A stretch of DNA of 12,153 nucleotides from a virus (IMGVR_UViG_2693429719_000002:1-12153), one strand, 5' to 3'. Positions 1 to 12,064 are shown, counted from the stretch's first letter. Translations and numbers: made by a program. Notes: generated from the letters alone by a model not told the origin.

Positions 1-314
1 TGGGCGTAATTCCGGGAAAGCTGCTCATACGAGACACCCAGCCCGGCAGCGATATACCGCAGCAGTGACTGCTCAAACACGGAGTAGCCGTTATCCGTAT
101 CCTGAGCCGTCTGCAGGTTCAGTGAGTCACCCGGCATCAGGTGCGGTACTTTTGCGCCTCCCAGCCGGACCGGCGCTGCGGCGTAATACGCGGCAATTTC
201 ACCAATCCAGCCGGTCAGCCTTTCCCGCTGCTCCTGACTGTTCGCGCCCAGAATAAAATCCATCGCTGACTGCGTATCCAGCTCACTCTCAATGGTGGCG
301 GCATACATCGCCTT
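1..314 (-). CDS. B: Lambda-type portal protein, C-terminal portion (begins ...KAMYAATIESELDTQSAMDFILGAN...); separated from its N-terminal portion by the insert; runs off the window start
   Basis: Minus-strand translation from 314 downward is open to position 1 and reads as the direct continuation of the portal sequence that stops at the right junction (SAIVKA | MYAAT...). Matches my recollection of lambda gpB; not listed in the ORF track because it touches the window edge. Confidence 0.85.
302..314. other. attL junction: core ATCGCCTT (307..314) within CATACATCGCCTT
   Basis: Same 13-mer with one mismatch occurs at 11230..11242 (CATAAATCGCCTT). The identical 8 bp at 307..314 and 11235..11242 is the likely crossover core. 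Confidence 0.7.
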
Positions 315-388
315 TATGAAAAGACAGGAAAAAATAAAATTTAAAAACAGTACATTACGAATACTCAAACCTATCGTTTAAAGGAGTC

Positions 389-650: not shown

Positions 651-700
651 TGTCACTGTGTGTCACTGGTTGTCACTCTCCGTCACAGTATGTCACCATA
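651..700 (+). repeat. Five phased 10-bp repeats (TGTCACnnnn x5)
   Basis: TGTCAC/CGTCAC at 651, 661, 671, 681 and 691, exactly 10 bp apart, just downstream of the last minus-strand gene. Confidence 0.6.
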
Positions 701-1024: not shown

Positions 1025-1250
1025 ATTGTGGCGGGTCCTTCCTGGAAAATGAAACACCGGGGGTAGCCATACGCGCAATTCTTAACTGTTTATGAAAATT
1101 TTTCGGGAAAAGCCAGATCCGTTCTTCTTCTCTGTAACTCATTGTTTAATGGTAAAATCATCAAAAAAAGAAAGGATCTGACAGTGGTCATTTTGGGCCA
1201 AAAATGACGTTATCAGATCCTTTCTCAGTTTTGTTCAATAATTGCGCGGC
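1025..1250 (+). other. Second cos-like segment in plus orientation: lambda-cosB-like arm with three R-site-like elements carrying CAGATCC instead of CGTTTCC, and a diverged cosN-like segment
   Basis: Plus strand 1080..1250 aligns to the remembered lambda left arm (TTTATGAAAATTTT.CGG, CGTTCTTCTTC, AAAAGAAAGGA, GACAG.G, CCTTTCTC.GTTTTTGT). The position equivalent to cosN reads CGGGGGTAGCCATACGCGC, not GGGCGGCGACCT. Confidence 0.5.
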
Positions 1251-2742: not shown

Positions 2743-3789
2743 TTAGCCAATGCGAACGGTAACAAAACGATTGATGCGGGCCGGTATTGGCTGTGGTGCT
2801 GAATGTGTCTGCACATATTCAATAGCCGGATCACCAGGCACAATATAGTTTTTCGGTGCAAGTTCGGCTTTAGTCAGCCCCATTCGGATTAGCTCCGGAT
2901 CCTGAATACCGCCATAGGCGACAATCCCCTGAAGAGCCGTATTGCCAAGCACCATCAAATCAGGATCAAGGAAATGTTTTTCTGTTCCGTCCTCGTCGGT
3001 ATAACGCCCGCTGTAAACAACAATCGCAACATCGCCCATATACCCTTTAAAACTCACCGAATCACCAAGGTCTTTAAGGGCCGTTTCCAGTTCGGAATTA
3101 GAACCACGACGGGTATCCAAAGCCTCTTTTATCGCTCTGAATGAACGGTATTTCTTCCATACATTACCACCCATAATGATGATATTAGTGACGCCCTCAC
3201 TAAATTCTGCGTAGCTCTCAATATCATCATTTGGATCAAAAGTTTCTTTATCCTTACCTGACCACTCAGTACCGCCAGACTGAGTGATGATATTTTGTGG
3301 TTTTATATTCCAGTCCAGCTCATAACGTTCAATACCATCGCCCTCAATGATATTTTTCCCCGTTGTGATTGCCTGAACAGCAAGCCATTCAATACGTGCA
3401 CGAATAGCTTTAGCCTGATTTACAATCGCCTGTTTAACTTTAATATTACGCGCCCCAAAAGCATTGTATTGCTCAGGTGACACACCAGCAGGGCGCACAG
3501 CTAACTTATTTGGATCAATGCTGCTTTTCGGCTTCATATAACCTGGACGAATTGTTTTTGATTCGTATCCCTCATCTCGTGAAACTTTACTGCCCACCAT
3601 AGGAGAGCAAAACGCCGCGATCGGGATATTTGGATCGTCGATCGTATCAAGAATAATGTCTCTCGATTCAAACATTACCGAGCGAGTGAAAAACAAACTG
3701 GTAAACAACGCATTTAATTTTTTTTGCACATCTTCAGCATTAGCCACCTGCACAAGCTGTGTAGGCGAATATAAATCAACCATACTCAT
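2743..3789 (-). CDS. Major capsid protein, lambda gpE family
   Basis: Strong similarity to lambda gpE (NIITQSGGTEWSGKDKETFDPNDDIESYA vs NITQSGGTEWSKRDKSTYDPTDDIEAYA; LDTRRGSNSELETALKDLG; GDVAIVVYSG; MVLGNT). Start trimmed to MSMVDLY (3789), AAGAGG RBS adjacent; the ATG at 3783 is an alternative. Confidence 0.9.
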   Translation of the reverse strand: MSMVDLYSPTQLVQVANAEDVQKKLNALFTSLFFTRSVMFESRDIILDTIDDPNIPIAAFCSPMVGSKVSRDEGYESKTIRPGYMKPKSSIDPNKLAVRPAGVSPEQYNAFGARNIKVKQAIVNQAKAIRARIEWLAVQAITTGKNIIEGDGIERYELDWNIKPQNIITQSGGTEWSGKDKETFDPNDDIESYAEFSEGVTNIIIMGGNVWKKYRSFRAIKEALDTRRGSNSELETALKDLGDSVSFKGYMGDVAIVVYSGRYTDEDGTEKHFLDPDLMVLGNTALQGIVAYGGIQDPELIRMGLTKAELAPKNYIVPGDPAIEYVQTHSAPQPIPARINRFVTVRIG

Positions 3790-3954
3790 CCTCTTTACAT
3801 TCATTACAAATAATTGTGAATATATTCTATTACCGATGTCTGCTATGCGAATACATGCAACCAAGTGCAATGTTGTATAAAATATGCCGTAACAACTTCA
3901 GTGCTGATAATTCGTGTTAATGTATTTACTTCCTTTGGTCGGGATTTATGTAGC

Positions 3955-4952: not shown

Positions 4953-6758
4953 TTAATTTTTTCCATCGTCATTTGTGACCGATGTACATGATGGCATCCA
5001 GTCTTCTGAATCCTCTGTCAGGGTCACATTTGAACGCAAACCGTGCTTCGTTTTCCGTTTCATATACTCCCTGCCATATTCCGCCATTGCCCCCGGCATA
5101 TCTTTACCGAAGCGCGTCAGTGTTACAGGTTTACCGAATCCGTGTGCCCTCATATATGCCAGATAGGCGTGATAAAGATACCTGCGCGGACTGAACGGAA
5201 TAATTTCGGCATTACCCACTAACAGACCATCACACATTACCGACGACATGAGATAGCCGCAGAAGTCCACCAGCGAATCGCCCTCGCGTTTTATCACCAG
5301 AGCTTCTTCTGATTTCTGCTGCTCATACAGCAGGCGTTTAGCTTCGTCCTGGTCAGAAAAACGAGTAAGCAGGTGGCGAATCACAACCGCCAGCTCTCCT
5401 TCTATTTTTTCTGCCAGCATGGGGTCGCGTTCGTTTTCCGGTACAACCTCCGAAAAATTGAATATCACCCGACGACGTGAGATCCCCCCGCTGCGGTCAC
5501 TGAATGACATGGCGTTATTGTTCACCGCCAGCACGACCGCCTGAATGCGTGTTGAGTAGGGAGCTTTATGTTTCGGGTCAATTGCCACCTTGTCACCGCC
5601 TGTAATGGCCTTAATTCCTGCACCATCACCAGCGTAGCGGGTCATATCCGGCATGATAATCAGCGAAAAGCCAACCACTAACGCGCGTTCCCTGGCATCT
5701 TCCAGCGCCTTCATGCTTGCCGACACCGTGTTGGCCTTACCCGCCAGCATGGTGCAAATCTCCGCCATTACGCTTTTACCGCTTCCACCCGGCCCCGTTA
5801 CCTCAAGAAATAACTGCCAGTCGTATCGGTTCGCCAGCACCATGAATAACGCCGCCAGTACGCGATCCGCTTTACGGTCATTCTCTGCCACCGAACGGCG
5901 CAACCATTTCCAGAAATTCGGCGCATGCGTTGCCAGCGTTTCCCCCTCTGCTGGTGGGCTGAACGGTAATTCACTGGCAATTAACAGCCAGTCGTTTTTG
6001 TCATGCTCCCGAAAATCGCCTGTCCGGGTATCAAAAACACCGTTACTGAATCCAATCAGGTTACGGGCGGTATTTCCCATTACGGGCAAACTTAACTTCA
6101 TGGTATCGACCGCCGATTTGATGGCGTTCTGCGAATAACTGATCTCCGCATCAATAAAAATCTGCGCCATAGCCCGCTGTAACTCTTTATCCTGTACCGG
6201 CTCCCATACAACGCCGTTGTAGTGGTGAACTGTGTCAGAGTCCGCATTGATTGCCAGTTCACCGCCATAATGGGCCAGGAGAACTTCGCCGCGCTGGCTT
6301 GCTCCCATCTGGTTAAGCGCCAGTGGTGCGGCGCTGTCTTCTGTTTTTTTCTTAACAGGAAGCTGAATAACCAGACCATCAGAAAGATTCTGGCGCTCAC
6401 GCTCCAGATATTCGCGCCACTCCTCCCGCTTCTGGCTGTGCATTCCCTCAGGGTAATAATTCGCATCCCGTACACCTGCCGCCGCCAGCTTTTGCCCGAT
6501 GGCATTAATATTTGACGGCTTGATGTGGCCTGCCTTGTACAGCCGGACACAATAGCGACCATCGTCGATAATTTTCAGGTCTGCCAGTTCGTCAAGCTGG
6601 CTGTCTCCCAGCCATACAGGCGGAACATTGTCACCAGCAAGTCGCCCGTCCTGCTCCTGCCATTGTTTCGCGTGCGCCCAGGCATCACTACCCGCAAAAA
6701 TAATGACTTCGGTCATTTTGTCGTGCGGCTGTTTTTTTAAGTTCGGTGCCAGTTTCAT
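4953..6758 (-). CDS. Primase-helicase / replication initiator with P-loop NTPase domain
   Basis: 601-aa ORF with Walker A motif (EVTGPGGSGKSVMAEICTML) and an N-terminal primase-like region. Usual position for a satellite replication protein, followed by iterons. Confidence 0.85.
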   Translation of the reverse strand: MKLAPNLKKQPHDKMTEVIIFAGSDAWAHAKQWQEQDGRLAGDNVPPVWLGDSQLDELADLKIIDDGRYCVRLYKAGHIKPSNINAIGQKLAAAGVRDANYYPEGMHSQKREEWREYLERERQNLSDGLVIQLPVKKKTEDSAAPLALNQMGASQRGEVLLAHYGGELAINADSDTVHHYNGVVWEPVQDKELQRAMAQIFIDAEISYSQNAIKSAVDTMKLSLPVMGNTARNLIGFSNGVFDTRTGDFREHDKNDWLLIASELPFSPPAEGETLATHAPNFWKWLRRSVAENDRKADRVLAALFMVLANRYDWQLFLEVTGPGGSGKSVMAEICTMLAGKANTVSASMKALEDARERALVVGFSLIIMPDMTRYAGDGAGIKAITGGDKVAIDPKHKAPYSTRIQAVVLAVNNNAMSFSDRSGGISRRRVIFNFSEVVPENERDPMLAEKIEGELAVVIRHLLTRFSDQDEAKRLLYEQQKSEEALVIKREGDSLVDFCGYLMSSVMCDGLLVGNAEIIPFSPRRYLYHAYLAYMRAHGFGKPVTLTRFGKDMPGAMAEYGREYMKRKTKHGLRSNVTLTEDSEDWMPSCTSVTNDDGKN

Positions 6759-7529: not shown

Positions 7530-7725
7530 GGCGCACCCCCTGACGAATACGGGCGGCGAATACCATCACACAGCCATCAGGAGATTGCTGGCGTGCTTCC
7601 TGTTCGCTGGTGGCCTCGATGGTAATCACGCGCGGCTGTGCCGTGCTCAGGGCGATAAAACGCCAGATGTATTTATTCAGGTTGTACGAGTCCCGCCCTT
7701 GCGGGTGTGTGGTATGATTTAACAT
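7522..7725 (-). CDS. Hypothetical protein (68 aa), first gene of the leftward operon
   Basis: Corresponds to the last 68 codons of the 411-aa track ORF 7519..8754. ATG at 7725 has GAGG 5 nt upstream; the upstream part of that long ORF is judged spurious. Confidence 0.5.
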
Positions 7726-7823
7726 AGCTACCTCGATACTTCTGCTATCGTTGGTGGTTAGAAGCCCCGTTACTGCTCCTACAGTGCGGGGTTTCGTCGT
7801 TTCTGCACCTTGCATTAACAAGG

Positions 7824-9792: not shown

Positions 9793-11034
9793 TCACACCA
9801 CCTCTTTATTAAGCTCGATAACGTTGTTGTTAAATCCTGCTATCGTATTAAGGTAATTAACCCACATATTAAGCACCTCAAGTTTTTTCTTTATATGCCT
9901 GCTTTTATTGTAAACACCAGCAACCCCTTTCACTTTATGACCCAAAAGAAGTTCGACAATATAAGGATCCGCCCCCATATCATTAAGCATTGTGGAAAAT
10001 GTGCGCCTGAAATCATGTATGCACCACAAGCCATTAGTATCATGACCAAGACGCCTGCATATTCTGTTTGCAGCCCCTGTTATTGTCGCCCTTTGCAAAG
10101 CACAACCGACAACATAACCGCGATTCTTTGTTTCTGCGTAAAGATTAACGATCCATTGTTTTATACCGTCAGGAACGGGCCTTACTATGGCCTCACCGTT
10201 TTTGCTGTGCTCTTTTGGGACTGTCCATACCCAGTTTTTTAAATCCCATTCTTCCCAGGTGGATAACCTCGCCTCCTGCTGTCGACAACCAAACGCCAGG
10301 CATATCACCATAATTCTTCGGTTATGTATCGATGAGAGAGTAAGCAAATTATTTCCATAAGCATACGACCATACATCAGCAGTTTCATTGATGCTAAGAA
10401 CGCGATCCCGTATACCGGACGAGCGGCCTACATAACTTACATTAATGTCTCCAAATGGATCGCAAGCGATATATTGCCTGACGCGACAAAACCGCAACGC
10501 CTGTTTAATATCAAGAAAAATTGCACCAGACATAACAGGCGCATTTTTTTTAATCCTGTCAAAGACGGTAAGCCATGTGTGTAATTTGCACTGTTCTATG
10601 GCCATATCGCCGATATAGGGGAATATATGCTTTTCAAATCGTTTTATTAAATATTCATGCTCTTTTCTGGCTGTTGTGGCGTGATTGTCGTACCAGTAAA
10701 ACAGCGCATCCCTTACGGTCACTGGTTGCATAGTTTTTTCGGCAGCAAGTTTTATTTGCCTGCGGGGGTCCAGATTTTCAGCCAGCCATTCACGGCACTG
10801 ATCACGCATGCGCCTGGCAGTTGCAAGAGACATGTCAGGATAGCGACCAAGTGTAAGCCATACCGGAGGGGATTTCCTGCCACCAAGACGATAGTAAAAA
10901 ACAAAGCTTATCCCCCCGACCATGCTTACACGCACAGACAGCCCGCGACCATCCGCTATTGTTTTTTGTTTGTCCTGTCGTTTTCCGGCAAGACTCTTTA
11001 ACAGTTTGTCGCTGAGTTTGTTTTCAATAGCCAT
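9793..11034 (-). CDS. int: Tyrosine-type site-specific integrase (P4-like)
   Basis: 413 aa; C-terminal catalytic motifs HDFRRTF ... LLGHKVKGVAGVYNKS (H-x-x-R ... Y); sits next to the element end. Confidence 0.95.
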   Translation of the reverse strand: MAIENKLSDKLLKSLAGKRQDKQKTIADGRGLSVRVSMVGGISFVFYYRLGGRKSPPVWLTLGRYPDMSLATARRMRDQCREWLAENLDPRRQIKLAAEKTMQPVTVRDALFYWYDNHATTARKEHEYLIKRFEKHIFPYIGDMAIEQCKLHTWLTVFDRIKKNAPVMSGAIFLDIKQALRFCRVRQYIACDPFGDINVSYVGRSSGIRDRVLSINETADVWSYAYGNNLLTLSSIHNRRIMVICLAFGCRQQEARLSTWEEWDLKNWVWTVPKEHSKNGEAIVRPVPDGIKQWIVNLYAETKNRGYVVGCALQRATITGAANRICRRLGHDTNGLWCIHDFRRTFSTMLNDMGADPYIVELLLGHKVKGVAGVYNKSRHIKKKLEVLNMWVNYLNTIAGFNNNVIELNKEVV

Positions 11035-11052: not shown

Positions 11053-11106
11053 TTGCAATACACACCCATCCCGATCGCCAATTTGCAATACACATTGCAA
11101 TACACA
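11053..11106 (+). repeat. Three TTGCAATACACA repeats between int and attR, putative arm-type integrase sites / int promoter region
   Basis: Copies at 11053, 11083 and 11095; the last two form the same 22-mer found at 389..410. Confidence 0.5.
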
Positions 11107-11182: not shown

Positions 11183-12064
11183 TTAGTGGAGTTGGCGAAC
11201 GATGCGGACAACTACGGTGAGATGATAGACATAAATCGCCTTCACAATGGCGCTCTGCAGCTGCGTGTTCTGCAGCGTGTCGAGCATCTTCATCTGCTCC
11301 ATCACGCTGTAAAACACATTTGCACCGCGGGTCTGCCCGTCCTCCACGGGTTCAAAAACGTGAATGAACGAGGTGCGCCCGCCGGGTAACTCACGGGGCA
11401 TCCATGTCCATTTCTGCGGCATCCAGCCAGGATACCCGTCCTCGCTGACGTAATATCCCAGCGCCGCGCCGCTGTCATTAATCTGCACACCGGCACGGCA
11501 GTTCCGGCTGTCGCCGGTATTGTTCGGGTTGCTGATACGCTTCGGGCTGACCATCCGGAACTGTGTCCGGAACAGTCGCGAGGGACTGGTATCCCAGGTG
11601 GCCTGAACGAACAGTTCACCGTTAAAGGCGTGCATGGCCACACCTTCCCGAATCATCATGGTAAACGTGCGTTTTCGCTCAACGTCAATGCAGCAGCAGT
11701 CATCCTCGGCAAACTCTTTCCATGCCGCTTCAACCTCGCGGGAAAAGGCACGGGCTTCTTCCTCCCCGATGCCCAGATAGCGCCAGCTTGGGCGATGACT
11801 GAGCCGGAAAAAAGATCCGACGATATGATCCTGATGCAGCTGGATGGCGTTGGCGGCATAGCCGTTATTGCGTACCAGATCGTCTGCGCGGGCATTGCCA
11901 CGGGTAAAGTTGGGCAACAGGGCTGCATCCACACTTTCACCCGGTGGGTTCCACGCCCGCAACTGCCCTCCAAATCCGCTGCCACCGCCGTGATAACCGG
12001 CATATTCGCGCAGCGATGTCATGCCGTCCGGCCCCAGAAGGGTGGGAATGGTGGACGTTTTCAT
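11183..12064 (-). CDS. B: Lambda-type portal protein, N-terminal portion; ends in 17 element-derived codons after ...SAIVKA
   Basis: 293-aa ORF starting [34 protein letters not shown], near-identical to remembered lambda gpB. Homology stops at the core, then reads [17 protein letters not shown] and terminates. Confidence 0.9.
11230..11242. other. attR junction: core ATCGCCTT (11235..11242) within CATAAATCGCCTT
   Basis: Direct repeat of 302..314 with one mismatch at the fifth base. Confidence 0.7.

Follow-up and report, generated by a model that had tools for sequence, protein, structure and literature searches.

A second, inverted cos-like site in an EcCICFT073-like satellite carries the CAGATCC boxes of an Stx2/LT-II prophage clade

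The window analysed here, 12,153 bp in length, is the whole of contig CYGH01000022.1 from assembly GCA_001286465.1. It contains an EcCICFT073-like satellite that interrupts a lambda-family portal gene. In Pfam, the stretch 11183-12064 (-) matches positions 2-242 of the portal profile, and the stretch 3-323 (-) matches its positions 235-331. Between the two portal parts lie genes for an integrase (9793-11034, -), a D5-type primase (4953-6758, -), a capsid-E-like protein (2743-3870, -) and a gpD-like protein (2392-2733, -), together with those for AlpA, a Bro-N protein, an SSB and a second AlpA-like protein. Every island gene between the portal halves is found on the minus strand, integrase included, and the island is co-oriented with the portal. 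This split-portal arrangement is the 'helper-embedded satellite' layout of Tommasini et al. (bioRxiv 10.1101/2022.07.18.500453), and related composites are seen elsewhere. Portal and gpW sequence is found at either end of the contig, and the breaks probably fall there on account of repeated copies of such prophage sequences in the genome.

A small-terminase-like gene of the Nu1 family, terS, is located at 1253-1804 (-; Pfam Phage_Nu1 E = 1.3e-24), with a likely ATG at 1765. Upstream of it lies the main packaging site, cos1 (1805-1975, -), in which a canonical cosQ (1960-1970, -) and the sole canonical cosN of the window (GGGCGGCGACCT, 1929-1940, -) are followed by a simple cosB that is devoid of R triplets (GGTGGTGGTTTTGTTGTT). 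Such simple cosB sequences come in two different types, CACCACC in EcCICFT073 and GGTGGTGGTTTTG in the window, and the cos1 type seen here precedes the same type of TerS in about 36 related satellites. Cos1 is presumably read by the island TerS together with the large terminase of the helper.

The island TerS aligns with Nu1 proteins in its central and C-terminal parts, while the N-terminal DNA-binding region is shorter and divergent. The recognition region reads SATAFDKWG in the island protein versus DVRTVTAWQ in Gifsy-1, SIRTIQNWQ in lambda and DPRTIERWQ in 21-type proteins. The protein can be described as a hybrid: its winged-helix region at the N-terminus is short and divergent, its Nu1-like core contains a deletion, and its tail is distinct. 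This C-terminal tail (…ETTGNVPEKLRQQKGE) exactly matches the one found in the 21-like TerS of other satellites and is unlike the Nu1 tails of lambda, 21 or Gifsy-1; it may represent a satellite-specific TerL-binding end. A comparison of the island TerS to solved structures, lambda gpNu1 and RppC included, gave no significant match. No BLASTP alignment to RppA was obtained, and the island terS is therefore not an Rpp by sequence.

On the opposite strand, a second cos-like arm (cos2) occupies positions 1029-1245 (+), immediately downstream of terS. Both this location and the lambda-like geometry of R3, I1, R2 and R1 had been pointed out in a first-pass annotation and are confirmed here. The annotation had considered the arm colinear with lambda cosB, which stands, but understated the extent of the likeness, as a cosQ-like box and the block TTTATGAAAATTTT are present in addition; the arm is colinear with the complete cos sites of lambda, Gifsy-1 and SerU-LTIIb. 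The cosQ-like box GGGTCCTTCC (1033-1042, +) aligns with the lambda-type cosQ GGGTCCTTTCC, as expected for a lambda-family cos site, and the region around it (1029-1045) forms an inverted repeat with the cos1 cosQ region at 1958-1974. The cosN equivalent GGTAGCCATACG (1062-1073, +), belonging to the class ACACCGRGGGT-N6-ACGCGCAA, aligns with lambda bases 1-12. It differs from GGGCGGCGACCT in both halves, with a left flank of GG rather than CG, while the right flank CG is kept. The spacing from here to TTTATGAAAATTTT (1089-1102, +), a block in common with lambda, and on to R3 is identical to that of lambda.

The R3 equivalent CAGATCC is located at 1114-1120 (+), the R2 equivalent CAGATCC (GGATCTG on the plus strand) at 1174-1180 (-) and the R1 equivalent CAGATCC at 1214-1220 (+). 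Counted from cosN base 1 (window position 1062), these correspond to +53/+113/+153 in +/-/+ orientation, compared to 53/114/155 in lambda and 53/114/154 in Gifsy-1. The box positions are thus those of a lambda-family cos site, and three CAGATCC boxes in +/-/+ orientation are what defines the Gifsy-1-type cosB group. CAGATCC occurs exactly three times in the 12,153 bases, all in the cos2 arm. A count of three is in itself unremarkable, being attained in 21 of 200 shuffles; what is unusual is where the words lie. A predicted IHF site (AAACAATGAGTTA, 1135-1147, -) with one mismatch to WATCAANNNNTTR lies between R3 and R2, placed like lambda I1, and the lambda I1 region obtains the same score by the same crude consensus test. 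Lambda cos and cos2 have the same subsite order and orientation, with spacing that agrees within 2 bp, and have the blocks TTTATGAAAATTTT and GTTCTTCTTC in common; lambda differs in its R boxes (CGTTTCC) and its cosN (GGGCGGCGACCT). In cos2, the position downstream on the same strand, where a cognate small-terminase gene would be expected, is taken by the opposite-strand terS with its different recognition region.

R2 and R1 together constitute a 28-nt imperfect palindrome with arms at 1169-1196 and 1198-1225. Across 20 distinct cos sites, the dyad symmetry of the R2-spacer-R1 unit is kept between lineages while the spacer sequence changes. The R2-R1 spacers have a mean perfect stem of 6.4 nt versus 3.6 nt in shuffles, and a stem of at least 6 is found in 65% versus 3% of shuffles.

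Judged by its sequence organisation, cos2 is a complete second cos site of the satellite, head-to-head with the main cos. With cos1 (-) and cos2 (+) flanking terS, the island therefore has two convergent cos-like sites, and the distance between their cosN positions is 878 bp. Cos2 is followed by orfX (703-993, -), a 96-aa ORF whose translation (MIMTEAEMLKMIR...) is homologous to that of the gene after EcCICFT073 cos2 (MTEAEILRLIRR...) and whose position is kept across satellites. A search of orfX against Pfam gave no family match.

The EcCICFT073 island, a PICI of E. coli, provides the closest described counterpart. Its architecture is the same as that of the window (int, alpA, primase, SSB, capsid-E-like gene and gpD-like gene), and it contains two cosN only, at 21559-21570 (+) and 22298-22309 (-) of L129, flanking rppA. 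The rppA gene (21660-22094) comes directly after the cos1 cosN, and the cos2 cosN is located just before a 93-aa gene starting at 22374, the orfX homologue. In both islands, cos2 therefore lies between the packaging-specificity gene and the orfX homologue (in the window, between the terS stop at 1253 and the orfX start at 993), and is inverted relative to cos1 (cos1 -/cos2 + in the window, cos1 +/cos2 - in EcCICFT073). The content of the two sites differs. EcCICFT073 cos2 combines a canonical cosN with boxes of the ATGTCCGG type at +51, +110 and +140, of which the last two point the same way; in the window, cos2 pairs a variant cosN with CAGATCC boxes arranged exactly as in lambda. Between its cos sites, EcCICFT073 has rppA and the window has a Nu1-family terS, with no detectable similarity between the two genes.

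Fillol-Salom et al. (2018, 2019) named the EcCICFT073 sites cos1 and cos2, and found that each confers plasmid transfer by lambda and phi80 (PMC6092414, PMC6739421). Transfer of the island is lowered by cos1 deletion, raised by cos2 deletion and abolished by the double deletion, and RppA steers the helper TerS to cos1 (PMC6092414, PMC6739421). A second, inverted cos has thus been known in the EcCICFT073 island family since 2018, with its role left open. The same authors did not find phage cosB in either cos site (PMC6092414, PMC6739421). Despite this reported absence, three ATGTCCGG-type boxes can be seen in EcCICFT073 cos2 (L129 22090-22360, -). Compared to the CRTGTCGG boxes of the 21-type prophage at icd in CFT073, they have one additional base; the EcCICFT073 cos2 boxes are close to, though not identical with, the 21-type boxes of its helper. 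A further satellite with two putative cos sites is SaPIbov4 (PMC6092414), compared here by mention only, which is like the window in this respect but is a Gram-positive island of unrelated sequence.

The first-pass annotation had interpreted CAGATCC as a substitution of lambda CGTTTCC in all three R sites of this island. This does not hold, as CAGATCC is the standard box of Gifsy-1 and of 57 prophage contigs. Salmonella phage Gifsy-1 and the LT-IIb prophage SerU both have CAGATCC / GGATCTG at their R boxes, with GAGATCC at R1 in SerU. An exact-pattern scan of IMG/VR, using R3 plus its 3' flank as the query, yielded 117 stretches, 57 of which are prophage contigs with a Gifsy-like Nu1 and TerL downstream on the same strand, usually accompanied by portal and capsid genes. 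CAGATCC is the standard R box of another natural specificity group and not an altered form of the lambda box. A phage 21 origin of the box was ruled out. The CFT073 prophage at icd, mentioned by Murialdo and Feiss as a 21-type TerS helper (PMC9026076), has R boxes of the CRTGTCGG type (CGTGTCGG / CCGACATG / CATGTCGG), which are also unlike lambda's CGTTTCC.

Similarly, the cosN equivalent had been described as merely diverged, but proves to be a recurrent natural class that is used by complete prophages. The cosN flanks GAAACACCGRGGG...ACGCGCAA, followed by TTTATGAAAATTTT and then CAGATCC, are found in the prophage contigs L045, L055, L066, L081 and L082, and also in L088, L094, L110, L126 and the SerU prophage, with central cosN bases that differ among them. 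TerL is 98-100% identical among the six comparable contigs of this clade, and only 81-87% identical to the TerL of prophages with canonical, Gifsy-type or other cosN. One terminase clade therefore goes with many cohesive-end cores. The cores observed in this Stx2/LT-II-type clade include ACGTGT, ACGCGT, CTGGGG, CGGTAG and others, and further clade loci are located in L213 (about 6000-6215) and L214 (about 7535-7750). The cohesive-end core looks either free to vary or under diversifying selection within the clade. Clade prophages in complete genomes are toxin-converting, with Stx2k in STEC313 and Stx2a in SA53-3, and in both the order is stx, lysis genes, cos, TerS, TerL, W and portal.

Comparison of cos2 to these phage sites reveals a close resemblance: Gifsy-1 and Stx2/LT-II cos have the same CAGATCC boxes, R3/R2/R1 positions, A-tract before R2 and IHF-site region, and in the Stx2/LT-II clade the cosN flanks match as well. 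Differences are found in the cosN core, in R1 (CAGATCC in cos2 versus GAGATCC in the Stx2/LT-II clade) and in the surroundings. In the phage version, the cognate Nu1 and TerL genes follow cos on the same strand, whereas cos2 runs into the 3' end of a terS of unrelated specificity on the opposite strand.

A match between satellite arm and helper is seen in SA53-3, where the late region of an Stx2a prophage harbours an embedded satellite with an arm 99.2% identical to that of the window. The cos of this prophage has the same cosQ and cosN flanks as the arm, with boxes CAGATCC / GGATCTG / GAGATCC. The clade was scored as cos plus Nu1 at a coverage of at least 80% in 5426 complete E. coli genomes. 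A clade prophage is present in 16 of the 30 best arm-bearing complete E. coli genomes, compared to 42 of 5426 overall. This corresponds to an odds ratio of ~236 (Fisher p = 9e-28), as scored on the 30 listed genomes, clones included, and uncorrected for relatedness; after collapsing obvious clones, p = 3e-22. With the exception of SA53-3, the clade prophage is located far from the satellite in the co-occurring genomes. Pairing by genome identifier in IMG/VR gave one satellite-prophage pair only (L018 and L126).

The prophage in which the island of the window is embedded is probably of another kind. Portal and gpW DNA of the window shows 98.5-98.7% identity to the two closest composites, in which the helper has the cos of lambda, with CGTTTCC boxes. 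For the portals of CAGATCC-type phages, identity to the window portal is only about 60%. These sequence comparisons suggest that the embedding prophage probably has a lambda-type cos, and the cognate helper of the arm would therefore differ from the embedding one. The earlier suggestion that the arm mimics the cosB of a helper is live in view of SA53-3, where the embedding prophage has the matching cos; in the window, the arm would match a helper other than the probably lambda-type one in which the island resides.

The distribution of cos2 was surveyed in 80 satellites found via the SSB gene, with cos detected by pattern. About 36 of these have cos1 alone and about 13 have two convergent cos sites; the remainder have no site matching the pattern or are incomplete sequences. 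Most of the satellites in which a cos could be detected (about 36 of roughly 50) lack cos2. Where occupied, the cos2 slot holds a Gifsy-type, 21-type or ATGTCCGG-type cosB, or one like that of the window's cos1, and in many satellites its cosN is fully canonical. It adjoins three kinds of packaging gene, namely the window's TerS type, a 21-like TerS and RppA. Copies 99.2-99.6% identical to the window arm are present in other satellites, while in the arm-less portal satellites VG35A2 and STEC313 the terS stop and orfX start are 11 bp apart. Since these close relatives have no arm, the arm with its flanks can be regarded as a ~260-bp block that is either present or absent.

A total of 18 distinct satellite copies of the Gifsy-type cos2 were aligned and form two subfamilies. 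The cosQ box (GGGTCCTT), R2 with its A-tract, R1, the IHF core TTGTTTAA and the last 20 bases are invariant among them; R3 and its 3' flank are likewise invariant, in this case because they were used as the search pattern. The parts that vary are the stretch between cosQ and cosN, the cosN core, and the spacers that flank I1 or separate R2 from R1. The same pattern of invariant and variable parts is displayed by phage cos sites. The alignment provides evidence that cos2 is kept by selection, and supports the first-pass reading of the uniform R boxes as the result of selection as opposed to decay.

What is observed is the anatomy, the homology to EcCICFT073 cos2, and a helper clade that matches the arm and co-occurs with it; from this we infer how cos2 might be bound and cut, and why it is inverted. 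We think it reasonably likely that cos2 is a helper-type packaging site of this EcCICFT073-like satellite, read by the native terminase of the Stx2/LT-II clade. The native TerS of a CAGATCC-type helper would bind the three boxes across the IHF bend and then set its TerL on the cosN equivalent 53 bp away, such that the island would be packaged from cos2 without an island-encoded specificity factor. The specificity of cos2 would be that of the Gifsy-1-type TerS clade, which in E. coli resides in Stx2- and LT-II-converting prophages. Cleavage of cos2 is putative, as its core AGCCAT, sought with its flanks in IMG/VR, was found in six satellite contigs only and in no phage.

The inverted orientation can be rationalised by the requirements of packaging termination, which needs cosQ and cosN but not cosB (PMC4669245); lambda terminase also stops at the cos of 21, and 21 terminase at that of lambda (PMC4669245). 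As cosB plays no part in termination, a directly oriented second cos would act as a premature stop, while an inverted cos would be passed over. A terminase starting at either cos would thus ignore the other, which it meets in the wrong orientation. In EcCICFT073, lambda and phi80 transfer the island better once cos2 is deleted, which shows that the site can carry a cost when the helper is not its cognate one. Such a cost fits a site kept for another helper, but also a decoy.

As a decoy, the arm would bind the helper TerS without productive cutting, with replicated copies titrating TerS and depressing helper packaging. This could explain why R boxes, IHF site and spacing are intact while the cosN core is one not observed in any phage, and it is in keeping with the co-occurrence of the arm with the matching prophage clade; the increased EcCICFT073 transfer on cos2 deletion (PMC6092414) is also what a non-packaging site would produce under those helpers. 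A pure TerS sponge would, however, have no need for the cosQ and cosN-class flanks that are kept, and cos2 of many satellites has a fully canonical cosN. Prophages with 98-100% identical TerL use many cosN cores, and an unusual core therefore need not block cutting. Furthermore, transfer is enabled by plasmid-borne EcCICFT073 cos2, and removing both cos sites is more damaging than removing cos1 alone. We consider the decoy function unlikely.

That the arm is a recombination relic, i.e. a piece of phage cos captured from prophage exchange and carried along as a functionless passenger, had also been proposed and appears improbable. All functional subsites are intact and invariant in the 18 distinct copies of both subfamilies while the spacers vary, EcCICFT073 keeps the slot and its orientation with a different cosB, and the co-occurrence with the matching helper clade is strong. 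These observations outweigh the signs of recombination on which the proposal can draw: the satellites are mosaic, with the terS 3' end, arm and orfX travelling together among islands with different terS bodies and integrases; close relatives exist that have no arm; and the inversion of the module in some islands indicates frequent recombination at cos.

The first-pass annotation had also considered that the island TerS might have its true recognition site in the arm; such a role, exerted at ~0.9 kb from the cos1 cosN, is very doubtful. The recognition region SATAFDKWG is unlike the DVRTVTAWQ of CAGATCC-linked Nu1 proteins, and the same arm accompanies different packaging proteins: it is found with a 21-like TerS whose own cos1 has 21-type boxes, and even in islands from which terS is deleted. 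Conversely, about 36 islands with the same TerS type have no arm. The arm does adjoin terS, and N15 offers a precedent in an accessory inverted R site (rR2) that is located ~200 bp from R3, within terS (PMC4669245), but lambda depends critically on the spacing from cosN to R3 (PMC9026076).

A regulatory region or non-coding RNA for orfX that only resembles cos is scarcely credible: although the arm fills the gap between terS and orfX and holds a 28-nt palindrome, this palindrome simply consists of R2 and R1, promoter and terminator scans of 600-2100 gave no signal over shuffled expectation, an Rfam scan of 600-2100 gave no match near threshold, and orfX needs no such region, given the arm-less relatives with terS and orfX 11 bp apart.

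Returning to cos2 as a helper-type packaging site, three aspects add to what was known of the EcCICFT073 family. Cos2 can, on the sequence evidence, be a complete cosB of heterologous phage specificity; the CAGATCC-type cos2 matches and co-occurs with the Stx2/LT-II prophage clade; and the cos2 slot varies between specificities. A purpose for the slot is suggested by the many islands that hold a complete phage-type cosB differing in specificity from cos1. We tentatively propose, at somewhat less than even confidence, that such satellites possess two packaging addresses, a private cos served via TerS or Rpp and an inverted copy of the full helper cos, with recombination at the shared cosQ-cosN repeat swapping the slot between specificities. 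In the window, the two specificities would be those of the lambda-type embedding prophage and the Stx2/LT-II clade. Should the site be functional, helper range in these satellites would be set by two sites and not one, and Shiga-toxin phages would be helpers of a widespread E. coli satellite family. If the two-address reading is true, one island could ride two terminase specificities, and the spread of these islands would be tied to toxin-converting phages.

Some further rearrangements of the cos region were observed among the satellites. When compared to L003 and the window, L018, L046 (= L177) and L175 have the entire cos-terS-cos segment in the opposite orientation with respect to the island backbone, which is the expected outcome of recombination between inverted cosQ-cosN repeats. 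The two cos sites of L013 are identical from cosQ through TTTATGAAAATTTTT. In L211 and L212, two IMG/VR entries with an RppA-like gene, cos2 combines the core of the window (GGTAGCCATACG) with a simple cosB (GGTGGTTGTTGTTT) like the window's cos1 type. Cos modules of every type have evidently been shuffled between the two slots, and the address an island presents for packaging may even belong to the TerS of a different satellite.

Two sets of repeats are located outside the cos sites. Just beyond the orfX stop codon, GTCAC occurs five times at exact 10-bp steps (652, 662, 672, 682 and 692; window 652-696, +). This array is conserved in the SA53-3 satellite and probably serves for phased binding of a protein; at the corresponding position, EcCICFT073 has a triple repeat of another sequence (TAACCCGTTGAT...). 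In addition, GCAATACAC repeats are present near both island ends (389-409 and 11055-11105, all +), with two copies at the left end and three at the right end beside int. These are probably integrase arm-type sites, corresponding to the doubled attP-region motif mentioned by Tommasini et al.
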